64,000 bases of DNA, from assembly GCA_963921275.4 (NCBI GenBank), contig OZ001293.3:4736001-4800000 (forward strand), read 5' to 3'. Numbering within the stretch: position 1 is the stretch's first letter; each line of letters starts with the position of its first letter. Source of the stretch: an uncultured Hormoscilla sp. Its GTDB lineage: Bacteria; Cyanobacteriota; Cyanobacteriia; Cyanobacteriales; Desertifilaceae. Below, in pieces: positions 27,419 through 48,344 of this stretch. The notes beneath the pieces were generated by a model. The model worked only from the letters and a program-made list of their open reading frames with translations, was not told the origin of the DNA and did no database searches. Both the position numbers and the translations under genes were made by a program.

Positions 27419-27760
27419 TTAGTACCGTCTGATGTTGCTGTTCGGCTTATGAACGATAAAGCTGAGCACCTGGCACTGCTTAATGTTGTCAAACCCCATG
27501 ACGCGGATAAAGCAATCGCGGTAATCAGTACGACAAGCATCAATTTCTGCCATCACTTCATTGACAGTTTTCGCATGGAACAGGGGCAATTTCCACATGG
27601 TCCAGTAGTGCATTTCTGGTGCAGAGCTTTCGCTGAATTCCACACCAGCGATGTAACCTTGATCCAGAATGTACTGGATTTGATTTTTCATCTGCGCGTC
27701 TGACAGCGGTGGCAGATAGGAAAGTGTTTCGTAACGACGTTCTTTGGCAAGAGTTTGCAT
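27419..27760 (-). CDS. rbcS: RuBisCO small subunit
   Basis: [24 protein letters not shown]. Confidence 0.98.
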
Positions 27761-27802
27761 GATTTGCGTTCTGATTGTTGTAGGACGTTCTAATTATATT
27801 AA

Positions 27803-28204
27803 CTAACCCGATTCATTATCCGGGTCAGCTTCCTGTTCTGGATAAGAGCTGAGATCGGATATATTCAGTTGCGTAATCCGCTCCAGATACTGACGGCGGT
27901 GTCCCATATTTGCCTGTTGAATACCCGATCGCACCATTTCTGGTAAATACTCGGTCACCTCTTCGGCCAGATGTTGCCGCACCGTCATGATTCGGAACGC
28001 CAGTTCCTGGTGGTTGCTCGTGAGTAACTCTTCCAAGTAAGCTTCTCCATCCTGAATTTTTCCAGTTGTCGAAAAGCCATTTAGCCAAATTGCTAGACCT
28101 GGATTTGTTTCTCTCAACTGGCTGACCACAATGCGCACTGCTTGATAGGTCAAGTAACTAGCTAGCACTCGCGTCGTGTCTTTCGCAACTTGTTTAATAT
28201 CCAT
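27803..28204 (-). CDS. rbcX: RuBisCO assembly chaperone RbcX
   Basis: SYLTYQAVR, LAFRIMTVR; lies between rbcL and rbcS. Confidence 0.97.
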   Translation of the reverse strand: MDIKQVAKDTTRVLASYLTYQAVRIVVSQLRETNPGLAIWLNGFSTTGKIQDGEAYLEELLTSNHQELAFRIMTVRQHLAEEVTEYLPEMVRSGIQQANMGHRRQYLERITQLNISDLSSYPEQEADPDNESG

Positions 28205-28273
28205 GTAACCTCAGTCTCTTAACCGATGCTGTAGGGCGGGCCGATCGCCTGCCCCGGTACCGTTCTGACTCTA

Positions 28274-29704
28274 TTAGACGGTATCCATTGCCTCGAACTC
28301 GAACTTGATTTCCTTCCACAGTTCGCAAGCAACTGCCAATTCTGGACTCCACTTGCAGGCTTCGCGGATCACATCGCCACCTTCGCGGAACAGGTTCCGA
28401 CCTTCGTTGCGTGCTTGAATGCAAGCTTCCAGGGCCACCCGGTTAGCGGTAGCACCGGGAGCGTTGCCCCAGGGGTGCCCCAGGGTGCCGCCGCCGAATT
28501 GCAGGCAAGCATCGTCACCGAAGATTTCTACCAGTGCCGGCATGTGCCAAACGTGAATACCGCCAGAAGCTACGGGCATGACACCAGGCATGGAGGCCCA
28601 GTCTTGGGTGAAGTAAATACCCCGTTCCCGATCGCGTTCGATGTGGTCTTCCCGCATCAAGTCCACAAAGCCCATGGTGATGCCTTTTTCGCCTTCCAGC
28701 TTACCCACCACAGTCCCGGAGTGCAGGTGGTCGCCACCGGACATCCGCAAGCACTTGGCCAGCACCCGGAAGTGAATGCCGTGGGCTTTCTGCCGGTCGA
28801 TCACGGCGTGCATGGCCCGGTGGATATGTAGTAGCAGACCGTTGCGACGGCACCACTTAGCCAGGGTAGTGTTGGCCGTAAAGCCACCGGTGAGGTAGTC
28901 GTGCATGATGATCGGCGTACCCAGTTCCTTGGCGAACTCGGCCCGTTCCAGCATTTCTTCACAGGTGGGGGCGGTGACGTTCAGGTAGTGACCTTTGATT
29001 TCACCGGTTTCCGCCTGGGCTTTCTCGATCGCCTCTTGCACGAAGGCGAAGCGATCGCGCCAGCGCATGAAGGGCTGCGAATTAATATTTTCGTCGTCCT
29101 TAGTGAAGTCCAGACCGCCACGCAAGCATTCATAGACTGCGCGACCGTAGTTCTTCGCCGACAGACCCAGCTTCGGTTTAATCGTACAACCCAGCAGCGG
29201 GCGTCCGTACTTGTTCAGCTTATCCCGTTCTACCACAATCCCGTGGGGGGGGCCTTGGAAAGTCTTCAGGTAGGCGATCGGGATGCGCAGGTCTTCCAAG
29301 CGCAGGGCCCGTAAGGCTTTGAAGCCAAATACGTTCCCCACGATGGAGGTTAACATATTGGTGACCGAGCCTTCTTCAAACAGATCCAGGGGATAGGCAA
29401 CAAAGCAGATGAACTGGTTATCTTCACCGGGAACCGCCTCAATATCATAGCAGCGACCTTTGTAGCGGTCCAGGTCCGTCAACAGGTCCGTCCACACCGT
29501 CGTCCATGTACCGGTGGATGACTCGGCTGCTACCGCCGCACCTGCTTCTTCTGGAGGAACTCCTGGCTGAGGCGTGACGCGGAAAGCCGCCAGAATATCT
29601 GTATCTTTGGGCGTGTAGTCCGGAGTGTAATAGGTCAATTTATAGTCCTTTACCCCGGCTTGATACCCGGCTTTTGTCTGAGTTGTGGTTGTACTGTAAG
29701 ACAT
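28274..29704 (-). CDS. rbcL: RuBisCO large subunit, form IB
   Basis: [11 protein letters not shown] catalytic motif; full length 476 aa. Confidence 0.99.
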
Positions 29705-30943: not shown

Positions 30944-31480
30944 ATGGAGTTCACCAGTTCTCAGTAGCGCTGCGCGCACTTCGTAACGGAGTTCGCAGTT
31001 AAGTGGTTGTACAAAATTATTTTTATATTTTTCCACCTCAAACCCCTGTCAGTCGGCGCGGCACTCTGTTGGGTTTCGTGGGTCAACCCAACCTACAGAT
31101 GATGAGACTTGTCCGACGATCGCAGGTAGGGTTTGAGACTAGGAATTTGTTCGATCGCGCCCCAACTAGATGCTTGGTTTTCTGTGTTGAGCGCAAGTAT
31201 GACATTCTTTGTTGGTATTAATATCTTATTTGCTCCCATTCCTTCTTCCCTTTTCGCCGGGCGATGGCTTTCTGTTCGGGGTCTGGGGTGCCGGTTGTTG
31301 CCCATGCTCCTAGGTGGGAGGTTATATATATAGTAGGGGAGGTCTGGGGAAGAGCGGGCACCCATTGCGCTTTCTATGCCCTGACAATTGGCTTCAGGTG
31401 TAGGAGTACATTGGGCCGGGGTTTGGCTCGAATACGGCTCGAATAGCCCTCGCTAATGGCTCGACTCGGGCGAGAGTATA

Positions 31481-31552
31481 GCTCGGTCTCGGCTCGGTCT
31501 CGGCTCGGTCTCGGCTCGGTCTCGGCTCGGTCTCGGCTCGACCTCAGCTCGG
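31481..31552. repeat. 11-bp tandem repeat
   Basis: (GCTCGGTCTCG)n. Confidence 0.85.
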
Positions 31553-32029
31553 GTATCTATCGTCACATTTTTTGGGTGACTTCAGTCACATACGGGGGGG
31601 TGGGGCGGCGCTATTATGCGGCTGGCTCCCTCGGCTATAATTTCTGTATGGCTTCAGTTCTTATCTACATACCGAGGGCGACGTTGGGTCGCCAAAATGG
31701 GTGACTGTCGCCTTGTAATTTACCAGAAAACGGTATTTTTAGACAAATAAATTTGGCAAAATTGCTGTTTGAGTGGTCAAAATTTTTCTAAGTAGCAACT
31801 TGGGTTATGTATGGGCAGAAATTATCACGCTTGAGGTCGAACGGCCAGAGTAATGATCGTACATGTCTGAAGCGATCGGAAGTTGATGCCGTGTTTCCGG
31901 GCAGGTAGGGCCGCCGAAGTTACCTGTGGGTCGCGCCGGGGCAGGTCAGCAGTATTATTATTGATCCGGCAGCTATGCCCCGATCGCCCAGATGCGAACC
32001 TATTGTGTCCGGGCATCCCCCCCGATCGT

Positions 32030-32232
32030 GCCGGGGCACGGCAGTATGACATTGATTAGATTTACCGATCTTGAGTTGATGCGGTACATACAGTCGCGCC
32101 GGGGCACGGCAGTATGACATTGATTAGATTTACCGATCTTGAGTTGATGCGGTACACCTACAGTCGCGCCGGGGCACGGCAGTATGACATTGATTAGATT
32201 TACCGATCTTGAGTTGATGCGGTACACCTACA
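32030..32232. repeat. Three tandem 68-70-bp repeats
   Basis: GCCGGGGCACGGCAGTATGACATTGATTAGATTTACCGATCTTGAGTTGATGCGGTACA. Confidence 0.9.
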
Positions 32233-32628
32233 TACATAACATTGGCTCACCTATACCATCTGCTGTCGCGTCTGGGCAGGTTGGCAGTGTTGTCATTGGG
32301 CCTGACCTGGCTGCCATCAAGCTAGATTTTCGGCGACATTAGTGGCCTTTCCCGTGGGAGCAAAACATCGCTGGCTTATCGGAAGCGGTTGGCCCAGGCG
32401 ATCGCCCGGGTTGGTTGGTGCAAGACGACAGTCATCCCCATTCTGAGCACTCGGGACTACCGGGACAACGTGAGGGAAGGAGTTCGGAGTTCGGAGTAGC
32501 GCTGCGCGCACTTCGTAACGGAGTTGGGGATCTCTCTGACGCAATCATGAGGGTTTGAGGCCGGAATGTTGCTGACTCCAAATCAGGGTTTGAGTAGCTG
32601 TCACGCCTCACGTGGGACAAGAACAGCG

Positions 32629-32852
32629 ATGGCGACGATTGTATTCCGGTAGTGCCGTGATTGATGTAGCGGCTGATGGGTGGAAGTGATGCCAATTTCC
32701 TGTAGTGAGTGCCGGTGCTTTTGGCTTCGGGGACTGGCTAATGGCGACGATTGTATTCCGGTAGTGCCGTGATTGATGTAGCGGCTGATGGGTGGAAGTG
32801 ATGCCAATTTCCTGTAGTGAGTGCCGGTGCTTTTGGCTTCGGGGATTGGCTA
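32629..32852. repeat. 112-bp tandem duplication
   Basis: ATGGCGACGATTGTATTCC... at 32629 and 32741. Confidence 0.9.
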
Positions 32853-33091
32853 ATCCGGGATTTTGGCTGCGCAACAATACTCAAGTTATTCGCTACCGGT
32901 GAAACGCATTTATCGAAAAAGTTGATTTTTTTTGCCGAAAAAGTGGGAAATAGGTGGATGAAGGCAACTTGACAAACGTTACAGCAAGTGCAGTAGGGCA
33001 AAAAATAGGTGGATCTCGAAGTTCAAAAAGGTGGATAAAGGTTGATTGTCATTCAAAAATGAGCTTTGCTATATTGTGATTGAAGCTAAAA

Positions 33092-33529
33092 GCTGCCTAG
33101 ACCTCTGAAGCTAGGTAACAGGCAAGTCAGTCTATTTAATGAGGGGTCAGACACCCCATTAACTGTGACTGGCAAGTAAAGGTAAATTAGCTATGGGGAC
33201 CGGAGAAAAAAGTAGGGAATTTAGAAAAAAAGGTAAAAGAAGATATTGACAGTGGTTGAGGATAGGGTTATAGTAGGGAAGGAGCCGGGAAGCAGGGAAA
33301 AAAGGCCGAGGCTGCCTAGACCTTTGAACCTAGGTAACAGGCGAGTCAGTCTATTTAATGAGGGGTCAGACACCCCATTAACTGTGACTGGCAAGTAAAG
33401 GTAAATTAGCTATGGGGACCGGAGAAAAAAGTAGGGAATTTAGAAAAAAAGGTAAAAGAAGATATTGACAGTGGTTGAGGATAGGGTTATAGTAGGGAAG
33501 GAACCGGAAAGCAGAGAAAAAAGGCCGAG
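33092..33529. repeat. 219-bp tandem duplication
   Basis: GCTGCCTAGACCT... at 33092 and 33311. Confidence 0.9.
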
Positions 33530-33928
33530 ATGGAAAAAAAGGTAAAAGAACATATTGACAGTGGTTAAAGAGAAGGGTCTGCCCTTATATGAGGGGAGTG
33601 ATACTTTTATCCTATCGAATAATGCGGTGCTGCGGGGGTGTGTTTGCCAAAAACAGAATTTGAATGGCAGATAGGAACTGCAGAAAGTGGCTTTAACGAT
33701 GGTGTGGATTTTAACTCTAGCACGAATGGTTCTGGTCATATGGCACTGCTGCCGATGGATGTCAACGGGATGGTCTGAGTGACTTGGTGCAACCGTGGAA
33801 TAATAACCGTCGCGTGTCAATCATTACCTATTGTCATAAGGTATCCCTATGAATGTCACTCTCCGATAACATTTGTCTTTTGGCAATTATAGAGCTTTTG
33901 TATCTAAGCGAGCGGTGGATATCTAATC

Positions 33929-34621
33929 ATGACACAAAATACAGATCGACTAGACAAAGAAGTTCAGTCACTTTTTCAAGGAATCCGAAATAAATTAAAA
34001 TTACCTGAGACAGCTCCCGAAAAGCTGAAATACTATATACAAGAACATAGCGGATTTTCCAGGTACAACCCGATGTTACTATCGGCTGGTGCTGAGAATT
34101 CTCAATCTGTTACTGCCTTATCTGCGGAGTTACAGCGAAACTCTGATGAAGAAGGTGGAGCTTCTGGTGAAGAGTCTCATTTTGCTATCTATACCCAAGG
34201 GCTTCGAGAGTCATTCCAGTTTAAGGTGGATGAGTATAATCTTTCAGCAGAAACAAACCGTTTCCTGGAAACGATGCTTGACATTTGTAAATCAGGTTCT
34301 TCGAGTAAAATCTGTGGTGTTTTTTACGCAACTGAGGCCGGTGCTATTCCAGAGTTAGAGCTAGTTCGCGATCTAACCGATTTGTACTCAAAGTCTCAAC
34401 AGGACTGTCAACCCTCAGAAAAATTGAAATACTTCTTCGATTTTCATCTCAATGGGGTAGAACAGGAACACAAAGATGGTATTGGAATCTTTATCAACCA
34501 GTACGAACAACATGGTCTAAATTTAAGTGAAATCCATGAGGGCTTCTCTAATACTATAACAGCGATGGATACCTGGTGGAGCGATCTGGAACTGACAGTT
34601 TCAGCCAACGATCGACGCTAG
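33929..34621 (+). CDS. Heme-oxygenase-like diiron oxidase/oxygenase (HDO)
   Basis: Helical protein with EE-G-x6-H, YATE and FH-x4-E-x2-H metal-ligand pattern. Confidence 0.75.
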   Translation: MTQNTDRLDKEVQSLFQGIRNKLKLPETAPEKLKYYIQEHSGFSRYNPMLLSAGAENSQSVTALSAELQRNSDEEGGASGEESHFAIYTQGLRESFQFKVDEYNLSAETNRFLETMLDICKSGSSSKICGVFYATEAGAIPELELVRDLTDLYSKSQQDCQPSEKLKYFFDFHLNGVEQEHKDGIGIFINQYEQHGLNLSEIHEGFSNTITAMDTWWSDLELTVSANDRR

Positions 34622-34749
34622 AGGAGCGGCGAAACTAGAGTTCAGTCTCTACCCATAACTGAACTCTAGTATGGGTAGAGAATGTCTATTATTCTCTGCT
34701 GTATTACAATTTTTATTGTGTTGCAAACTTATTTTGACTATAAAAAAGC

Positions 34750-35898
34750 ATGAGTAAACAAACATCAAATCTCAATACAGATAGGGATAGGAAAAATCAG
34801 CTTGAGGAGATCCTGAGTGAGAGCTGGACAAAAGTACTTGGTATCGAAAAAATAGGGAAAGATGATAACTTCTTTGAATTAGGAGGGAATTCTCTGCAAG
34901 CCATTCAAGTTGCTGTTACATTAGCCACAGCTTTACAAGTAGAAATCCCTAAAAATATCCTGTTTGAAAAACAAACCTTAGCCAGTCTAGCAGATGCGAT
35001 CGAGACACTTTCTAAAACAGGTTCTGAACTGCAGCCTACTTCCACCGAACCTGTTTCATCAGAGATCGAAGAGCCTATCCCCTTTCTTGGAAGTCAAGTT
35101 GCTTCTGACCCAAGCAAAACTGCCGCTGAAATCAAAGAAAAGATCAAAGAACTTTACGATCTCTACACGAGAAAACTTAATGCAACAATTTACAACAATA
35201 GTTCAAAGTTTTTGAATTATGGATATATTGATGATGGAAGCCCACAAGAAGCAGTCATAAAATTACCAAAGTACCTACTCCACAAACATAATATTAAATT
35301 AATTCTTGAGTTAATTGGCGATTGCCCACTTACCAATTGCCGAATTCTAGATATCAGTTGCGGTCGAGGTGGAAATGTTGAAGTAATTGCTAAATACTTC
35401 GATACTCAGGAAATTATTGGCCTCGATCTATCTCCAGAAGCAATTGCATTTTGCCAAGTCAACTACAGCTACGATAATGTTCGTTTTGTAGTGGGTGATT
35501 CTGAGAATTTACCTTTTGAAGCCAATCAATTTGATGCGATAACAAATATTGAATCTTCTCACAGTTATGGCGATGTTATTGCCTTTTACAAAGAAGTTCA
35601 TAGGGTACTCAAACCGGGAGGATATTTCTTATATTCAGATTTGATTTTAGCCGAGCGATTGGAACATAACTTATCTGTTCTAGAAGAAATAGGGTTTATA
35701 GTAAAAAGGAATCGAGACATTACCAAACAAGTTTTGTTATCTTGTGAAGAAGCTGCTAAAGTAAACTTACAGGTAATTGAAGTCGATAAAGATTCTCAAG
35801 TAATGAAAGAATTTTTGGCAGTACCTGGAACCAAATTTAATGAGAGTTTTCAAGAAAGAATATGGACCTATAGAATTTTGAGACTGCAAAAAAGTTAA
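34750..35898 (+). CDS. Carrier protein (PCP/ACP) fused to a SAM-dependent methyltransferase
   Basis: DDNFFELGGNSL phosphopantetheine site; FLNYGY; ILDISCGRGG; RVLKPGG. Confidence 0.85.
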   Translation: MSKQTSNLNTDRDRKNQLEEILSESWTKVLGIEKIGKDDNFFELGGNSLQAIQVAVTLATALQVEIPKNILFEKQTLASLADAIETLSKTGSELQPTSTEPVSSEIEEPIPFLGSQVASDPSKTAAEIKEKIKELYDLYTRKLNATIYNNSSKFLNYGYIDDGSPQEAVIKLPKYLLHKHNIKLILELIGDCPLTNCRILDISCGRGGNVEVIAKYFDTQEIIGLDLSPEAIAFCQVNYSYDNVRFVVGDSENLPFEANQFDAITNIESSHSYGDVIAFYKEVHRVLKPGGYFLYSDLILAERLEHNLSVLEEIGFIVKRNRDITKQVLLSCEEAAKVNLQVIEVDKDSQVMKEFLAVPGTKFNESFQERIWTYRILRLQKS

Positions 35899-35900
35899 TC

Positions 35901-36527
35901 ATGAATACAAAAGATAAAGTTAACTGGGTATATAATGTTAATAACAATAGTGAATTGACTGCAAGGTATAATCTCTGGGCAAAAGAATATGACCAAGATT
36001 TGAAAGATGAGTTTGGCTATACAAATCCACTATATGCAGTGGAAGTCTTAGTAAAGTACGTCTCTAGAGATGCCAATATTTTAGATGCAGGAGTAGGAAC
36101 AGGTTGGGTAGGGCAGCTTCTAGATGAGCAAGGCTACCATAACCTAGAAGGAATGGACATGTCAGAAGGTATGCTCTCACAGGCGCGTAACAAGAATATC
36201 TACACCACACTTTACCAGAAGACAATGGGCGAGCCACTTTCTTTTGGGACTAACTCCTTTGATGCTATTATTAGCGTTGGCGTGTTCTCACCTGGGCACG
36301 CCCCAGCCAGTTCTTTTGATGAGTTAATTCGCATTGTTAAACCAGGAGGTTACATTATTTTTACCTTGCGTCCTGACTTTTATCAAAGCAGTGATTTTAA
36401 AGAGAAGATGGCATATCTGGAGATATCCAAAATATGGGAATTGGTAGAAGTTGGAAAACAGTTTAAATGTCTTCCCAAAGGCGAACCTAATATGTACTCT
36501 CAAGTGTGGGCTTATAGGAAAGTTTAA
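35901..36527 (+). CDS. Class I SAM-dependent methyltransferase
   Basis: YNLWAKEYDQDL, ILDAGVGTG, RIVKPGG. Confidence 0.9.
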   Translation: MNTKDKVNWVYNVNNNSELTARYNLWAKEYDQDLKDEFGYTNPLYAVEVLVKYVSRDANILDAGVGTGWVGQLLDEQGYHNLEGMDMSEGMLSQARNKNIYTTLYQKTMGEPLSFGTNSFDAIISVGVFSPGHAPASSFDELIRIVKPGGYIIFTLRPDFYQSSDFKEKMAYLEISKIWELVEVGKQFKCLPKGEPNMYSQVWAYRKV

Positions 36528-36558
36528 TTTTTGATAGTCTGATTTTATTTCTGCGTAC

Positions 36559-37530
36559 ATGGAAAAAAGTATTTGTCAACCTCGTTATCAACCTGCTAAT
36601 TCCTTAGAATCTCCACGATTCACGGGTATACGGACCTTTGCGCGTTTGCCCAATGTGCAAACTGTTGAAGATGTCGATCTAGCTGTGGTCGGTTTACCCT
36701 TTGATACCGGAGTTAACTTTAAAGTTGGTGCCCGTTTTGGTCCTGAGGCAGTAAGGAGTGCTTCAGTTTTGCAGCGTCCCTATAATCCCGAACTCAAAGT
36801 AAATATATTCAAAACCCTTTCCTGTATTGATTATGGTGACGCACCTGTCGTACCAGGGTATATAGAAGACTCTCATAGAGCAATTACAACAACCTTAAGA
36901 CCCCTAGTTGAAGCAGGTATTATTACGCTGGGGATTGGGGGCGATCACAGTATAGCGCTGGCAGAATTGCGAGCCTTAGCCGCAGTACACGGTCCTTTGG
37001 CGATGGTTCATTTTGATGCCCACTGCGATTTATGGGATACTTTCTACGGCCATAAGTACGGTCACGGTTCTCCATTCCGACGAGCTGTTGAGGAAGGATT
37101 ATTATTACCCGAACATTCAATCCAAATTGGGCTGCGAGGAACTCTTTTTGATTACGAAGATTCGCGATATTCACAAGAAATGGGCTTTCTTGCCCTCACA
37201 ACTTCACAATTACTGGCTCAGACTCCTCAAGAAATTGGCGAATTAGTCCGCGAGCGCGTAGGAAATAACAAGGTATTTTTATCCTTTGATATTGATTTCT
37301 TTGACCCAGCTTATGCACCAGGGACTGGTATGCCTGAAGTGGGGGGACCAACAAGCTTTCAAGGTCTTTCCTACTTACGAGCCTGCAAAGGTATTAACTT
37401 AGTTGGTGCTGATGTAGTAGAAATTCTGCCTGCAATGGATCATGCACAAATTACCGCTCAGCTAGGAGCATATGTGGCTTATGAGTTTATGTCCTTAGTA
37501 GCACTGTCGCGCTTGCGGGAAATCTGTTGA
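36559..37530 (+). CDS. Agmatinase-like ureohydrolase (amidinohydrolase)
   Basis: GGDHS, HFDAHCD, GHGSPF, SFDIDFFDP Mn-binding motifs. Confidence 0.9.
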   Translation: MEKSICQPRYQPANSLESPRFTGIRTFARLPNVQTVEDVDLAVVGLPFDTGVNFKVGARFGPEAVRSASVLQRPYNPELKVNIFKTLSCIDYGDAPVVPGYIEDSHRAITTTLRPLVEAGIITLGIGGDHSIALAELRALAAVHGPLAMVHFDAHCDLWDTFYGHKYGHGSPFRRAVEEGLLLPEHSIQIGLRGTLFDYEDSRYSQEMGFLALTTSQLLAQTPQEIGELVRERVGNNKVFLSFDIDFFDPAYAPGTGMPEVGGPTSFQGLSYLRACKGINLVGADVVEILPAMDHAQITAQLGAYVAYEFMSLVALSRLREIC

Positions 37531-37580
37531 TTTAAAGTTCAGCAGTTGATTGGAAACTTGAAGACAAAATTCTTGAAGAC

Positions 37581-38981
37581 ATGGATATTATCTTGAAACT
37601 TGTCGGGTATACTCGCTCGAGACACAATCTCACTTTCCTTTACCAATATCATGAAATCACTTTTACCACTACTCTTTGGTATTCAACAGTTGACTTTCAT
37701 CAACTGGAGGAAGAGTATGGGCAAGAATACATGGGAAAACTGTATTTTCATATTTTATTATTTCATGGTTTAAAAATCTTGAGTTTGAAACCAACTCATC
37801 TAGATCTTGGAGAATATGCTAAATATTGGAGCCCCCAGTTACAAAAAGTTTGGGAAAGAAGTGTTGAACAGTGTTTGGGGCAGTGGAGATATGAATCGGG
37901 CAATATCGATTATTCAGGAGTAGAAGTTATCGCTAAAGATGTTCCCGAACTCAAAATAGAGCCGATAAAGCTGAATGCCCAAGACCCCCCACTTCTTGTC
38001 TGTAATGGTGGAGGAAAAGATAGTGTTTTAATGATTCGTTTATTGGATGAGCGCGCAATTTCTTTCGACACCTTTAGCATCAATTTTCACACTCACGCCT
38101 ATCCAGAAAAGATGTTTGAGTTGAATGAAAAACATCTTGACTACCTCGATCATCCTCCGCAAAAGAACCATCGTCAGTACATTATAGAGTCATTCCTTAA
38201 TTCTCCGGCGGCTAAACTTCATGGAGTAGAAGACTTAGAGATTTCTCTGATGCATAATGATGAAGACCTACCCAACGCTTACGGAGTTTTTGGTATCCTT
38301 CCTATTATTCTTCAAGAAAAATATACAAGTATCTGCTTTGGAAATGAGAGAAGTGCTGAAAGTGAAAATGTTCAGGTAAACGAGCAAATCATTAATCATG
38401 CCTGGAGTAAAACTACTGAATGTGAAATTCTTTACCAGCAATACGTTCAAAAAGAATTTATCGCTAATCTTTCCATCTTCAGTTTCCTGAAACCTTTTTC
38501 AGATGTGTTAGTTTATCGTCTTTTAGCTAAAAAAGTAAATCCAATAAGTCTAGCACTAGCTTATTCATGTAATCTAAATCCTCCTTGGTGTAAATTATGT
38601 CCTAAATGTGCTTATGTTTGGTTATCTTACATGGCTTATCTCGCGCCAGAACAAGTCAAAGCTATAGTCGAAGTTTTTGGAGAAGAAAATCTCTTCGACT
38701 GTTCGGATTTACAGTTTTACTATCGAGGGCTTATGGGTTTAGAAAGTCATAAACCCTTTGAATGTGTTGGAGAGATAGAAGAAAGCAAACTTGCCTTTGA
38801 AAAATGTGTTGAACGAGGAGTTACAGGAAAAGCTGTGGATAGCTATCTTCAAAAAGCCCGTTTAGATAAAGATGAGTATAAAAAGTTATGGGAAAAATAT
38901 AATCAAATCGATCTGTCCTACCAGTATTTACCCCAACAATTCCAGGCTCTTCTTGTTAAAGAATATCAGAATTTAGAATAA
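37581..38981 (+). CDS. PP-loop adenylating enzyme, MurL-like
   Basis: GGGKDS PP-loop, NERSA, INHAWSK, WCKLCPKC, KPFECVGE. Confidence 0.65.
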   Translation: MDIILKLVGYTRSRHNLTFLYQYHEITFTTTLWYSTVDFHQLEEEYGQEYMGKLYFHILLFHGLKILSLKPTHLDLGEYAKYWSPQLQKVWERSVEQCLGQWRYESGNIDYSGVEVIAKDVPELKIEPIKLNAQDPPLLVCNGGGKDSVLMIRLLDERAISFDTFSINFHTHAYPEKMFELNEKHLDYLDHPPQKNHRQYIIESFLNSPAAKLHGVEDLEISLMHNDEDLPNAYGVFGILPIILQEKYTSICFGNERSAESENVQVNEQIINHAWSKTTECEILYQQYVQKEFIANLSIFSFLKPFSDVLVYRLLAKKVNPISLALAYSCNLNPPWCKLCPKCAYVWLSYMAYLAPEQVKAIVEVFGEENLFDCSDLQFYYRGLMGLESHKPFECVGEIEESKLAFEKCVERGVTGKAVDSYLQKARLDKDEYKKLWEKYNQIDLSYQYLPQQFQALLVKEYQNLE

Positions 38982-39932
38982 ATGACAAATCAGCTACACA
39001 AATCCCAACAATCATTGTTTTTACCAGAAAACCTAAAGGCAATAATTGCCTTGTTGACTGCCCTGATTATTTGGGCTTTTGTTCCTATCGCAATCCGATT
39101 AGGCGAAAGGGAAATGATCCCCAATCTTCTTATCTTTCATCGTTTCTGGATATCTACTATCATCTTGGGGTTGTGGAATGGATTTCCGAGTGTAAATCGC
39201 CAATTATTCGAGGATCGATCCGAGCAAAAACAACCCTATAACAGTCGATTGGTGGTGCTATTACTAGCTATTGGCATCTGTTTTGGGGGGGAGCAAATTA
39301 TCTGGGCTTGGTCGCTGACTCAAACCAGCATTGCTAATTCATCACTTCTGCACAGTCTCTCCCCCCTATTCACCACTTTGGGGGGATGGATATTATTTGC
39401 ACAGCACTTTGATAAGAGATTTATGCTCGGTATAATAGTTGCCATTCTAGGCTCGGCGATCGTCGGATTCGACGATCTATCGTACAGTATAGACAAGCTA
39501 CAAGGTGATGGCCTCTCTCTTCTTTCTGCATTTTTTTTAGCCGGCTATTTCCTGTTTGTCGAACAAGTCCGAACTCAGTTTAATACTAGAACTATACTTC
39601 TATGGTCTTGTACGATCGGCACTCTAGGGCTTTTTCCTATCTTTCTAATGACCAAAGATAAACTTTTACCCTCTTCGTGGAGTGAATGGCTAATAGTTCT
39701 GCTTCTAGCTTCGATGCTAGTTTTCGGTTACGGACTTCTAGCCTATTCTCTCAAGTTTTTGTCCTCAGGGTTAGTTGCCACAATTTTACTCTTCGATCCA
39801 GTCATTACTGCTATCCTTGCCTGGGCAATTTTCTCAGAAACACTGGATTTCTATAACTTAGTTGCTTTTCCAATAGTTTTGGGGGGCATATACTTAGCCA
39901 CAACTAGCCAATCTGCTATTAAAGGGACTTAA
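38982..39932 (+). CDS. EamA/DMT family transporter
   Basis: About 10 TM helices, SLTQTSIANSSLL, GDGLSLLSA. Confidence 0.9.
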   Translation: MTNQLHKSQQSLFLPENLKAIIALLTALIIWAFVPIAIRLGEREMIPNLLIFHRFWISTIILGLWNGFPSVNRQLFEDRSEQKQPYNSRLVVLLLAIGICFGGEQIIWAWSLTQTSIANSSLLHSLSPLFTTLGGWILFAQHFDKRFMLGIIVAILGSAIVGFDDLSYSIDKLQGDGLSLLSAFFLAGYFLFVEQVRTQFNTRTILLWSCTIGTLGLFPIFLMTKDKLLPSSWSEWLIVLLLASMLVFGYGLLAYSLKFLSSGLVATILLFDPVITAILAWAIFSETLDFYNLVAFPIVLGGIYLATTSQSAIKGT

Positions 39933-39972
39933 ACAAAAATAAAGGTCAAAACAAGTTATAACCCACATTCCG

Positions 39973-40091
39973 CGTTCCGGAAAAATCGGGATGCTAGCTG
40001 CTGCTTCGCCACGGCTACACGCTCCGGGCCTCCTCCTCGCAGCGTAGGGGGCCCGGAGCGTGCAGTGACGCAAAAACCCCTCAGACATCGA
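39973..40091 (-). repeat. Inverted copy of the repeat at 30017-30133
   Basis: Reverse complement aligns over its length. Confidence 0.85.
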
Positions 40092-41070: not shown

Positions 41071-44000
41071 ATGACAGCATCTATAGTCAAGCCGCAAACC
41101 GATGAACAGCAGGCTTCCCTGCGGTTGAAAGACATCATTAAAACCTTGCCGCGAGAGGTTTTCCTCAAGAACAGACGCAAAGCCTGGACTACTGTGTGCG
41201 ATTCGTTTAGTGTAAAATGAATTGACACATGTCAATAAATGGGACCACTAGCAGGGTGACATTAGCCCTGACAACTTCTAGATGATGGTGGTGAAAGCCC
41301 ACCCCTCCAGGTGCAGGAGTGAAAGCGTAACCCCTACGGTAGCGATGGCATCAATCCGTAAAGCGGGGTTAAAAGGCGCACTGACTGGTAGCCTAAACCG
41401 GTTATCGCCAAGCAAGTAGTCATGGTGAGCGAAAGCAAAGACTCATAAGTGTCGTCACAAGGAACCAGCGAAAAGGCTGAACCTGAAACGCTGGCCCAAA
41501 AAGGGAAAGGATAATGGTCATTGGCGGATACAGTACCGACCAATAAGCACTGACAATAAACCCGGCATATAGAGTCCACCTAAAACTACAACCAATCATC
41601 TAGAGGAACGAAGTAAACCAGATATATACTCTCAACCACCGGTCGATAGGTTGAGTAGCCACCACAGGCGCAACATCTGCTCTCCGGAAGGCAGGTTGTA
41701 TCTGGGAAAGATTGAGCGGAGAAGCTAACGCCCGTCTGTAATGGATGGGATATGCTGACGCCCTCACGGTAACGTCAATTGTGGAGTTGTAAGTAGCAAT
41801 GCATACGTCATGAGCACGGTTTCCGAATCGATGAATGAATGGAAGGATATCCCCTGGCCTCGGCTGGAGCGGGTAGTCTTTAAGTTGCAAAAACGAATTT
41901 ACAGAGCGGCACTGGAAGGCAATAAGCGAACGGTTCGCAGACTCCAAAGGTTACTGGTAAAATCCCGGGCTGCCAAAAGTCTAGCGGTACGACAGGTGAC
42001 ACAAGATAACCAGGGAAAGAAGACCGCTGGTGTGGACGGTGTGAAAGCACTGACCCCGAAGCAAGGTTTAGAACTGGTAGGACAGATGGAAATCTCAAAC
42101 AAGGCCAAACCTACACGGCGTGTATGGATACCCAAGCCAGGAAGAGAGGAAAAGCGTCCTTTAGGAATACCAACGATGTATGACCGCGCGACACAGGGAC
42201 TCCTCAAGATTGCGCTCGAACCCGAGTGGGAAGCGTACATGGAAGGGAACTCCTATGGATTCAGACCGGGAAGGGGATGTCACGATGCAATCGGAGCGAT
42301 ATTCTTAAGCATCAAACATAAACCCAAGTGGGGACTAGATGCTGACATCGCAAAATGCTTCGACAAGATAAACCACAAAGCGCTACTGGAGAAACTGAAC
42401 ACCATAACACCAATCCGTAAACAAATACGGGCATGGCTAAAGGCCAGTGTGATGGACAAATGGAACTGGCATGCAACCGAGGCGGGTACTCCCCAAGGGG
42501 GGGGCATATCACCATTACTAGCCAACATAGCCCTCCACGGGTTAGAGGAGGCAGTGATGAAGCTCGCCAGTACACAAAGGGAAAAGCAGAGACTGACGGT
42601 AGTCAGGTATGCTGATGACTTTGTTGTAATGCATGAGAGCAAGGAGATGATAGACAAAGCGCAAATGGTGGTGGCAGAGTGGCTAAAAGAAATGGGGCTA
42701 GAGTTGAAAGCCGAAAAGACAAAAATAACTCATACGCTAAAAGGAGAAAAACCGGGATTTGATTTCCTGGGGTTCAACATAAGGCAATATGAGGTGGGTA
42801 AAAACAGAACCGGCAAATCAGGTCAAGGAACACCCCTAGGATTCAAAACCCTAATCAAACCCAGTAACAAGTCCATAGGGAAGCATAAAGAACGGCTAGC
42901 AGAGGTGGTAGCCAGCCATAAAGCAGCACCACAAGCGGCCCTGATAAGCAGGCTAAGCCCGATAATACGGGGATGGTCTAACTACTACAGGTCCGTGGTG
43001 AGTAAGGAAACTTACTTCGACATGGATAACTACCTATGGAACATCCTATGGCAATGGGCCAAAAGGAGACATCCCCATAAGTCAAGTCACTGGATAGTCC
43101 GTAAGTACTGGTCTGTAGACCAGGATGATTGGCGATTCCGGTGCAAGGCAGGGAAGGGAGAGGTAACGCTGTACAAACACTCTGAAACTGAGATAGTCAG
43201 ACACGTAAAAGTGAAAGGCGCAGCAAGCCCATATGATGGGAACCTTACATATTGGAGTACAAGGTTAGGCAAAAGCCCTGAACTAAGTAAGAGAGTAGCG
43301 TTGCTACTGAAGAGGCAAAAAGGAAAGTGCCAACACTGCGGACTAACGTTTATGGACGGTGACAAGTGGGAAGTTGACCAGATCAAGCCCCTCTCATTAG
43401 GGGGTAAGGACCGGTATGACAATCTACAGTTGCTGCACAAACATTGCCACGATATAAAGACTGCCAGCGATGGCAGCAAGAATAGCCGTACCTGTGACAA
43501 AGGTGGCGTTACTGAGGAGCCGGATGACGTGAAAATGTCATGTCCGGTTTTGAAGACGAGTCGGTACGGTGACGTACTGGCTTAGTTTAATAATTATTAA
43601 CGTGCTGCTGGTGATATTGGGATACGTCGGTCTGGCGATCGCGCCCTGGTTTCTGTTGCCGCCCCTATGGATATTTACGGGGACAGCGCTGACGGGTTTC
43701 TTCGTGTTGGGTCACGACTGCGGCCATCGGTCCTTTGCCAACCGGAAATGGGTAAATGACCTAGTAGGACATTTAGCATTTCTGCCCTTGATTTACCCCT
43801 TCCACAGCTGGCGGATCCTGCACAATAAACACCACGCACACACGAACCTATTAGGGGGAGAGGACACGGCGTGGGAACCCTTTCAGCCAGAATTTTACGA
43901 TAACTTTGGCGCAGTCGGGAAGTGGTTTTATCGGAGAATTCGGGGTCGGTTTTGGTGGGTAGGGTCAATTGCCCACTGGGGAATCCTCCACTTTAACTGG

Positions 44001-44644: not shown

Positions 44645-45981
44645 ATGGGGATTGAATTAGTCAAATCTCTTAAATCAGCAGGAGTTAAATTTCTGCGTGT
44701 AGTCTTTTGCGATAACGCCAATGCGATCCGCGCCAAGGCTATTCACCTGGGGATCCTCGCAGAAAACCTGGACTATCCGGTCAGCATCACAGCGGTCAAG
44801 AGGCTAAGCAAGCATTGCCGGTGATGTATGATGGGGTGGTTCCTGATAGTGGACTGGCCCCGGTGGGGGAAGTTTGGTTGGTTCCCGACTGGTCAACATG
44901 TAAGATTTTACCCTATGGACCCAGCCACGCCCGGGCGATGGGGATACGATCCACAATGGAAAACCTTGGTCGTTATGTCCGCGATATTTTCTCAAACGAG
45001 CGATCGCCGCCGCCAAACAAGCAGGGATAGAGGTGATGGCCGCTTTTGAAAATGAATTCTCCCTGCTGCATTCTAGCAATAATGAAATTATCCCCACTGA
45101 TGATACTGTGTTTGCCTCCACTCTGGGGATGGATCTCAATCGCAAAATCATTGATGCGATCGCCGATGCTTTAGTGGCCCAAGATATGACCGTAGAGCGA
45201 TATTATCCTGAATCGGCCCCCGGACAGCATGAAATTTCTATCCGGTATGCCGAAGCTTTGCAAGCTGCAGATAATCAGATCGTGTTTCGGGAAACGGTGC
45301 GGGCGGTCGCCATCGAACATGGGTTAAAAGCCTCATTCTTACCAAAAATCTTTGCAGATAAAGCAGGCAACGGTTGCCACTTGCACGTGAGTCTCTGGCA
45401 AGAGGGCAAAAATATCACGGGGGATGGTTCTGGGAAACTTTCGAGTACGGCCCTGGCTTTTATCGCGGGCATTCTCCACCATCTCCCGGCCCTCATGGCC
45501 CTGACCACCCCGAGTACGAACTCTTACCGGCGCATTCGCCCCCACTTTTGGAGTGGTGCTTTTGCGGCTTGGGGCTATGATAACCGAGAGGGGGCAGTGC
45601 GGGTGCCTAGTAACCCAGTGCCACCGAGTCCCACCCATTTTGAGTTAAAAACTTCTGATGCTTCAGCTAACCCATATCTAGCTTTGGGAGCAGTGATTTT
45701 TGCCGGTTTGGATGGGATAGGCCGAAATCTTAGCCCTGGAGACCCGGGTAGATATTGACCCGGGGCTGTTTTCGGAAGCAGAACTTACCGAACGCGGGAT
45801 CGAAAGATTGCCCCAAAACCTAGGAGAAGCGATCGAACACCTGAGTGGCGATCGCCTGCTCTTAGATGCCCTGGGTGCAGAACTAAACCGCGCTTACCTG
45901 GCGGTGAGAAAAGCGGAATGGGAGGCGATGAAAGACATGGAATTAGAAGCAGAAGTGAATCTTTTACTCGAACGCTATTAA
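44645..45981 (+). pseudogene. Glutamine synthetase-family (gamma-glutamyl ligase) gene, frameshifted
   Basis: AFENEF, ESAPGQHEI, GNGCHLHVSL, WGYDNRE, ANPYLA across several frames. Confidence 0.8.
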
Positions 45982-45986
45982 GAAAA

Positions 45987-46862
45987 ATGATGCCCCTTGC
46001 GGATATTCCTCTAATTGACCAGCATGCCCACAACCTACTAAAAGCGGAAATTTTCTCGGCATATGCTTACTCGGCGGCTTTTACCGAGGGTTATGACCCG
46101 AAGATTGTCAACTATCATGCCCGTCATACTCTCTGTTACCGTCGCAGTTTGCGAGATATTGCTGCACTGTTGGACTGCGAACCCAGCGAAACTGAAATTA
46201 TCCAGCAACGGGAACAGTTAGGACTGGAAAAACTGACCTAATTTTGTTTCCAGGCGGCTAACATTGAAAGCATTTTCATGGATGATGGGTTTTTAGGCAA
46301 TCAAATACTTCCCTTAGCATGGCATCAAAAATTTTTGCAAGTTCAGCGATTATTGCGTTTAGAAACCTTAGCAGAGACTATATTTGAACAAACCTAGTCT
46401 TTTGAGGCTTTTGTAAACGAGTTTCGCAGTCAGCTTGAATGTCCGGTGGTTATAGGGTTTAAGAGTATTGCCGCTTATCGGACTGGTTTAGCCATTGAAT
46501 CAGTTGCTGAAGCCGAGGCAAAATCTTGTTTTTACTTGCTAAAAGATACTTACAAATATAAGCCATTCAGACTCGCGAATAAATCCTTAATTGACTTTCT
46601 GCTAGGACAAGCTCTTGCCGCCCGGCAGAAAATGCCCGTACAGTTTCATACGGGGTTTGGCGATCCGGACTTAGACTTATTGTTAGCAAATCCTCTACAT
46701 TTGCGACCAATTTTAGAAGCTCGACGTTATGGCGATGTGCCGATAGTCTTGTTGCATGGGTCATATCCTTACGAAGCAGCATATTTGGCCAGTGTTTATC
46801 CCCAGGTTTATGTAGATTTTGGGCTAGCAGTGCCATTTTTAAGTGTTTCCGGAATATGGTAG
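45987..46862 (+). pseudogene. Amidohydrolase (FluG N-terminus-like), broken
   Basis: IDQHAHN, GFKSIAAYRTGL, QFHTGFGD; stop or frameshift near 46240, truncated. Confidence 0.75.
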
Positions 46863-48344
46863 CAAGTGGGTGGCCACATACCGCTCGCATGTAGAGATGA
46901 GCTGGGAAATTTGGTTAGTGGCGATCGCCTTAGTGCTGTTGCCCCCCAGCTTGATTTGGCTAGGATACCACATATTTCCCCCCGAAACGGGCAGTAGAAT
47001 ATTATCAGTTACCGATTTATGTATCTTTGCGGGTGAGGCTGCGGTAGCTGTTGGGGCGTCCTTAATGGTGAATGAATGGAGGGCGTTGCACATTTTGGGG
47101 ATGATGCCATTGTTTGCACAGGCTACGCTACTGAAAGTGGCTTATAGTCTACGTTTAAGACTTATGCAAAGAGACTCATCGTCCCGTGATTGTGCAACGC
47201 TTCTTTTCTATCGATGTCCCCCCCATCTCAGAAGATTGCCAAAGTAGGAGGTAGAGGGTCGGAGGTTTCAACTAGATCGTCCTTTCGATGCCTACCTACC
47301 GCGCCCCCTCCCGCACGGCGAAAACCCGGAAGGCATCGCTCAGGTATCGAGGTTCCCCCCATTGTGGTAAACTTCAAGTAACCACAGTGAAATCATCGCT
47401 AGTAATCAGGGTAAAATCAATGCGCTTTAGGGTGGTCAGGGTTTCCTCTTCAAAGTTAATCAAAGTATTTCGGCCCCGAGAGACGATCTGCAAATTGGCG
47501 AAACTCAAACCTCCTGCTAGCCCGATCAAGTCCGTGCCATCTTCAAAGTCTATGATGGTATCCCGGCCATGGCCCTGCTTCAGAACAAAAATATCGGCGT
47601 CCTCTCCTCCGTAGAGGGTATCGAGCCGGTCTTTTCCTCCTAGACCTAACAGTTTTTCCCCGTTGGGCGTCCCCCGGAGGTAGTCGTTCTGACTATCCTC
47701 ACCGACTATTGGTAGGCCAACCTCTGAAACATCGTTGACGTTAATGGTAAAGGTCTCTGAGTAACTGTTCCCAGCAGAGTCGGTAGTTTGGACGCGGATG
47801 CTGTAACTAAACTGGGTCTCATAGTCCGGTGAACTGTTAATTAGCAGTTGGTCCCCGGAAATGGTTAAGGCGGCGTTGTCGGAGGCACCGGCGCCTGAGA
47901 CTAACTGGTAAGTAAAGCTATCTCCCGAGTTGGGGTCGGTAGTGGAGAAGATCCCCACGACACTACCCTCAGCGGAGTTTTCATTGATGCTGCTGTTGCT
48001 GAGTTCTAGATCGGTAGGAGGGGAGTTCTCTATAACAATGTCAAAGATATCTGTCCCTCGATTTCCCGCTTCGTCGATGGCGGTTACCGTTACGGTAAAG
48101 ATGCCTGCGGTAGTAGGGATACCGCTGATAACTCCCTGAGAGTTGATGGTTACGCCCCCTGGTAAACCGGTAGCTGTGTAGTTGTTGATGTTGTTATTGA
48201 TGTCGCCGAAGTTGTCGCTAATGTCTATGTCGAGGTTATTACCTAGCAAGAACTTGACGTCGGGAATCTGGGTTAAAACATAAGGGGGGTTTTCCAATAG
48301 CTTTTCAGCCCGCAAATCTAAGACCTCTTGGGGGATGGTGCCAG

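Follow-up and report, generated by a model that had tools for sequence, protein, structure and literature searches.

The locus examined here raises the question of whether six neighbouring genes encode a single pathway and, if so, to what kind of product. The genes lie at 33929-39932 of a 64 000-nucleotide window, the whole stretch of DNA analysed, which corresponds to C1:4736001-4800000 in the 7.03-Mb genome of a filamentous cyanobacterium (G000); positions are window positions unless a contig is named. It was found that all six genes are intact, with foreign composition and intact catalytic motifs, that genes 2-6 are tightly coupled, and that the island is a real, recently imported cassette with parts from different settings. 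We estimate a probability of roughly 50% that it is a mosaic mini-cluster, encoding a single pathway to one small, methylated, exported metabolite derived from a basic amino acid (arginine or ornithine). This reading is favoured because of the tight spacing, the intact motifs, the shared codon signal and two recurring gene pairs, and the gene combination rests on one genome. An earlier note, made from the sequence alone, had proposed a horizontally acquired route to a methylated, N-oxidised arginine- or guanidine-derived metabolite; the import, the protein families and the diiron motif stand, and the guanidine N-oxidation chemistry is not supported.

Layout, composition and origin of the island

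The island comprises six co-directional open reading frames (ORFs) on the plus strand: gene 1 (33929-34621), a 230-aa heme-oxygenase-like diiron enzyme (HDO) of the DUF3865 family; gene 2 (34750-35898), a 382-aa carrier domain fused to an assembly-line-type S-adenosylmethionine (SAM) methyltransferase; gene 3 (35901-36527), a 208-aa METTL27-like small methyltransferase; gene 4 (36559-37530), a 323-aa ureohydrolase of the agmatinase/guanidino-acid hydrolase type; gene 5 (37581-38981), a 466-aa MurL-related PP-loop ATP pyrophosphatase with a QueC fold; and gene 6 (38982-39932), a 316-aa EamA/DMT transporter. The gaps between them are, in order, 128, 2, 31, 50 and 0 bp, bearing out the intact, closely spaced block first described, and all six family assignments hold on library scores and structure matches.

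The impression of an AT-rich block without HIP1 sites was confirmed by computation. Island GC content is 39.4% compared with 47.4% for contig C1, an equally low value being found in 1 of 1145 6-kb tiles, and the HIP1 site GCGATCGC, with a C1 mean of 4.1 per 6-kb tile, is absent. Absence of HIP1 is a weak signal alone (76 of the 1145 tiles also lack it); combined with GC below 42%, it occurs in 7 of 1145 tiles. GC at third codon positions is 0.28-0.41, which ranks the genes in the bottom 3-12% among 2945 long ORFs. Codon usage in each of the six is better described by a Moorena or Symploca model (built on 29-41 genes each) than by the host model, by +0.02 to +0.08, while the same score averaged -0.04 +/- 0.04 for 2285 host ORFs and was above zero in 13%. 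The HDO and ureohydrolase genes were found in none of four same-genus genomes (G544, G597, G610 and G621; 93-97% complete), and a DNA search with the island returned diverged paralogues only. Together with the compositional signal, this agrees with the horizontal acquisition proposed earlier, for which a Moorena/Symploca-like low-GC cyanobacterial donor would be the best explanation.

A contig obtained from a different sample within the same study matches positions 34486-40064 without difference. The island reading frames are therefore not an assembly accident, although a contig from the same study is not independent evidence of the island's spread. Ratios of nonsynonymous to synonymous substitution rates against relatives were 0.32 for the HDO, 0.15 for the MurL-like gene and 0.25 for EamA, and reflect whole lineages rather than this strain.

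A single pathway or accreted cargo

The four short gaps and the intact ORFs, in a slot littered with repeats, count in favour of a pathway. Two pairs of island genes also recur elsewhere. In genome G447 an EamA gene follows the HDO gene, with unrelated genes beyond it, and METTL27-like and MurL-like genes are adjacent at loci L121 and L122, with a 41% relative in L031.

In the proposed pathway, the ureohydrolase would take urea off an omega-guanidino compound to give a primary amine. The HDO would oxidise the amine end, most likely by a C-C cleavage like that of BesC, giving a terminal alkene and formaldehyde. The MurL/QueC-fold enzyme would adenylate the carboxylate and then epimerise, cyclise or amidate it, or hand it to a carrier; the carrier-fused and METTL27-like methyltransferases would attach methyl groups, and EamA would export the small polar methylated product. 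This exact order of steps is doubtful. Slightly less probable again is a one-carrier pathway, in which the MurL/QueC-fold enzyme would replace an adenylation domain and load an arginine- or ornithine-derived acid onto the orphan carrier for methylation. If gene 5 does load the carrier, carriers would have a new loading route and the MurL family its first role in secondary metabolism, and gene 1 of such a one-carrier pathway would give DUF3865 enzymes their first known reaction. No reaction was found assigned in the literature searched for DUF3865 HDOs, bacterial METTL27-like methyltransferases or non-peptidoglycan MurL relatives, and the one paper there that mentions DUF3865 is on an unrelated subject. 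Three of the six proteins belong to these families, and a 6-kb cassette that is cheap to express whole offers a direct way of assigning their reactions.

The carrier domain of gene 2 (PF00550) has an intact serine (GGNS, Ser48) and is followed by a PF08241 methyltransferase domain, for which the best NCBIfam models were phthiotriol methyltransferase and Mtf2, each below cut-off. Twenty of the best 150 relatives, picked for alignment over the methyltransferase, were scanned. Fifteen were ketoreductase-acyl carrier protein-methyltransferase (KR-ACP-MT) ends of type I polyketide synthases (PKSs) and one, P0156, was a stand-alone ACP-MT; the three plasmid relatives examined, of four, all lay within nonribosomal peptide synthetase (NRPS)/PKS clusters. 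Given these settings of its relatives, a methyltransferase of this type would normally act on carrier-bound substrates.

Gene 3 matches structure 7QCB (E 8e-24), and 20 of 300 further genomes from the same order have a counterpart. Among 25 METTL27-like loci surveyed over 1.5 kb to either side, 10 had a TauD or PhyH dioxygenase gene as a neighbour and 2 a MurL-like gene. Gene 6 scores 133 bits against PF00892.

Several observations weigh against a single pathway. A lack of co-occurrence elsewhere, which the earlier note had named as refuting its reading, was the outcome for the full six-gene set, found in no other DNA searched; only the two pairs recur. G447 has only the HDO and EamA genes, its EamA protein is 41% identical, and it gave no MurL-like match. 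None of 44 MurL-like loci (duplicates included, several of them short contigs) has an HDO, ureohydrolase or EamA homologue, and the ureohydrolase relatives, of which two contexts were examined in detail, are solitary or catabolic. The island has no adenylation, acyltransferase or ketosynthase domain as a loader for the carrier, nor is there a remnant upstream, the 3 kb before the island giving no match among the proteins collected for this analysis; G000 has one phosphopantetheinyl transferase, and loading in trans is possible. For gene 1, the link to BesC is remote and by profile only, the structural model is unusable (predicted local distance difference test score, pLDDT, 40.8), and there is no formaldehyde-activating enzyme (GFA) gene within the island.

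These points lend some weight to the view that the island is accreted cargo with no single product. Its components would be an HDO(+EamA) unit, the detached tail of a PKS, an agmatinase from catabolism and a MurL-like/methyltransferase pair, brought together in a hot spot of the donor or of G000, with all genes intact because the insertion was recent. Each island gene does have its nearest kin in a different setting, the cargo of the slot differs in three relatives, and the island composition is unameliorated; against this, four gaps of 0-50 bp separate genes whose frames are all intact and whose codon signal is uniform. Also against accretion, a stand-alone ACP-MT occurs elsewhere (P0156), and the adjacency of methyltransferase and MurL-like genes recurs. 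The 128-bp structured gap that sets the HDO gene apart from the other five fits accretion. It contains inverted repeats in the order A-B-A'-B', with perfect, mutually exclusive stems of 13 bp and 12 bp, and a third hairpin (34634-34698, plus strand; fold z -5.1, equalled in 0 of 200 shuffles, with 16 such 50-bp bins on C1). Rfam gave no match for these repeats, which are possibly an attenuator, a processing site or a replication scar. On balance, accretion is possible, but we consider it unlikely.

Chemistry of the HDO and the ureohydrolase

If the single-pathway reading is followed, the next question is what the HDO does. Gene 1 scores 85.5 bits against PF12981 (cut-off 31.6), placing it in the same family as the DUF3865/CADD-like protein 3B5O. 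According to PMC11363339, the HDO superfamily has the metal motif E-H-X-H-D/E-H on three helices. All six metal ligands are present in the gene 1 protein and invariant in nine of nine aligned sequences (E74/E75, H84, E136, H173, E178, H181), so that the diiron-site check suggested earlier came out positive. In a single-sequence search of the PDB, 3B5O was matched (E 8e-17) and BesC was not; a profile of the HDO and its relatives matched only 3B5O and BesC (7TWA, E 4.9e-10). A heme-oxygenase-like fold is suggested by homology to these two structures, gene 1's own model having been built on seven close sequences. BesC, the 4-chloro-allylglycine synthase of the bes cluster, is the sole characterised PDB match of the profile. 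It too is a stand-alone HDO domain and shares the six-ligand motif, whereas the island has no halogenase or other bes gene.

Three close HDO relatives were found (84, 78 and 62% identity), the 78% cluster being named from Moorena. One of the 52 genomes searched in that family carries the gene, as does one of 400 further genomes from the same order, and its position on the contig is the same. For more distant relatives, 5 of 13 DUF3865 plasmid records were examined, and in four of the five a JmjC gene precedes and a GFA gene follows the DUF3865 gene; lysyl-tRNA-synthetase-like, decarboxylase or amidinotransferase genes are present as well in three of these four loci. BesC releases formaldehyde. 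By analogy, the GFA neighbours appear to fit a BesC-like formaldehyde release better than N-oxygenation. The JmjC-DUF3865-GFA cassette (L068, L072-L074) is common to Nostoc and Streptomyces plasmids. The DUF3865 neighbours were also considered as a GrbD/GrbE-type arrangement, a reading abandoned because the gene upstream is JmjC-like and has no PDB match. The fifth plasmid locus (L069:4452-13064, Streptomyces clavuligerus) combines DUF3865 with arginase-family, isochorismatase, ATP-grasp, MFS and HypE/HypF genes, and may be a nitrile- or cyanamide-forming cluster.

The ureohydrolase has intact binuclear metal motifs (GGDH127, DAHCD153, DID244). It scores 204.3 against the agmatinase model TIGR01230 (cut-off 174.3) and 66.5 against the arginase model TIGR01229 (cut-off 227.6), and falls slightly below the NF002564 cut-off (286 against 302). 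Its closest structures are guanidinobutyrase, guanidinopropionase and PAH. Relatives at 70-82% identity come from other cyanobacterial orders and from Chloroflexota, and of 400 further genomes in the same order, just 3 gave a match at E 1e-60.

These results bear on the chemistry first proposed, in which the HDO would N-oxygenate a guanidine or amine, the ureohydrolase would liberate an N-hydroxy compound, and the exported metabolite would be methylated and N-oxidised. HDOs such as SznF do perform N-oxygenation, as PMC11363339 describes, the diiron motif of gene 1 is intact and an arginase-family gene stands at one DUF3865 locus. The szn, gnt and dcs routes of guanidine N-oxygenation moreover share with the island the logic of a methyltransferase with a metal oxygenase or ureohydrolase. 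However, SznF was not among the PDB matches of either the HDO sequence or the profile at E <= 1, and gene 1 encodes a single 230-aa domain without the cupin fusion of the SznF type. GntA, cited earlier as an HDO, is instead described in PMC10849742 as a heme-dependent YqcI/YcgG enzyme, as is DcsA, and no sequence link from the island to these routes was found. The DcsB analogy fares no better on the family models, gene 4 lying above the agmatinase cut-off and far under the arginase cut-off. With the GFA neighbours also pointing to formaldehyde release, N-oxidation by gene 1 seems rather improbable. No characterised cluster in the literature searched (MIBiG and most subscription journals outside the search) matches the combination, in agreement with the first description.

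The MurL-like enzyme and the deleted glutamate racemase

Gene 5 has the SGGxDS-like loop and the fold of a PP-loop ATP pyrophosphatase, with PF26298 and PF26299 assigned in precomputed annotation. The PP-loop (NGGGKDS142) is invariant in 21 of 21 sequences, and the protein has four cysteines (C330, C337, C340, C343). The best fold matches of its predicted model (pLDDT 82.6) were QueC (Z 10.8, root-mean-square deviation 3.8, 180 residues aligned) and Cap9 (Z 10.2), with which the modelled protein also appears to share the four-cysteine spacing, although identity is 13-16% and about 180 of 466 residues align. Foldseek with the same model gave no match at E <= 0.001. MurL is a homologue that uses ATP and releases AMP (PMC5808125), probably via an acyl-adenylate. 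However, gene 5 scores 113.8 against the MurL family model NF041275, for which the peptidoglycan-epimerase cut-off is 700, and its neighbours are tailoring enzymes.

The proteins most similar to that of gene 5 (65-72%) are encoded in a conserved NAD-linked cluster of marine filamentous cyanobacteria (Moorena, Okeania, Symploca and Trichodesmium; L034-L046, L048, L049, L051, L052), where the MurL-like gene is accompanied by N-methyltransferase, NADAR, Zn-dependent alcohol dehydrogenase (Zn-ADH), TauD/PhyH, isochorismatase and nadA/B/C genes, partners different from those in the island. Of the 13 close loci with a named source, 12 have Zn-ADH as a partner of the MurL-like gene, and L044 has a different setting. 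In the tree, the gene 5 protein branches outside the 13-row NAD-cluster clade (97/91 for the 13 rows), and at 15 positions it shares its residue with two or all of three outlying relatives and with none of seven NAD-cluster proteins; a different substrate for gene 5 is therefore plausible. Other MurL-like genes are located in small-molecule clusters rather than cell-wall operons. A second clade (29-34%; L024-L033, L143, L144) adjoins egtB/egtD-like, DUF427, radical SAM and betaine-transport genes, and others adjoin ectoine synthase or FAD oxidoreductase genes. With MurL relatives in at least three other uncharacterised cyanobacterial cluster types, one assay would inform many.

A role in peptidoglycan synthesis was considered since MurL and MurD2 bypass MurI, with E197/R358 in MurD2 where Escherichia coli MurD has D182/K348 (PMC8788868). 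In the G000 assembly, the glutamate racemase gene murI (C1:1611222-1611640, minus strand) is missing 404 bp, with both catalytic cysteine motifs among them, as well as 9 bp more. All four same-genus genomes have an intact copy. G000 has no MurL-like match besides gene 5, and no D-amino-acid transaminase scored above cut-off there (partial sequences). That gene 5 now provides D-glutamate for peptidoglycan is nevertheless very unlikely, because the intact, canonical host MurD keeps D and K at the E. coli D182/K348 equivalents, as in the four relatives, and the score against true MurL, another racemase-family gene in G000, the five other island genes left unexplained and a deletion seen in the assembly of a single genome all argue the same way. 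The murI deletion raises the separate question of the D-glutamate source of G000. An Asp/Glu-racemase-family gene (below cut-offs) in an NRPS cluster (L150, G000:C1:3016989-3025005) is a candidate source of D-amino acids. A 288-aa ORF of this cluster, at C1:3.024 Mb, was tried as a DUF3865 member and rejected, giving no alignment to the DUF3865 profile and no NCBIfam match.

Insertion slot and neighbouring features

The island occupies a variable slot between the panB stop codon and a conserved block before desA (30944-40065), with different cargo in relatives. The flanks are 93-97% identical in G544, G610 and G621, and the inserts between them differ. In these three (L091-L093) the slot encloses a DUF3179 gene at the panB 3' side, which was not found in G000; G621 and G610 carry additional cargo and a second copy of the final 44 bp of panB, and the G610 cargo includes RHS/HINT-type genes. 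The two flanks are on separate contigs in G597, so an empty site is not shown there.

Tandem duplications of 11, 68-70, 112 and 219 bp were found at 31459-33576. The 219-bp duplication (33092-33529, plus strand) doubles a near-consensus promoter, a TTGACA-17-TATAGT site per copy (33246, 33465; consensus match only), 460-680 bp before gene 1. Terminator and promoter counts were not above shuffles, and no riboswitch was matched at 20000-46000 of the window.

G000 has further small clusters (L075-L078), some broken, with methyltransferases, TauD/BBOX, hydroxylases, decarboxylases, and EamA or symporter genes, which appear to resemble betaine-type metabolism. Within the window, ORFs that we take to be rbcL-rbcX, followed by a small ORF, lie on the minus strand at 27419-29704, and at 45033-47247 an ORF with a glutamine-synthetase domain precedes several short ORFs, perhaps one fragmented gene. 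A group II intron with an intact reverse transcriptase ORF splits a fatty acid desaturase gene at 41196-43591 and is missing from that site in G544, G610 and G621, and further introns are present at 20-26 kb.

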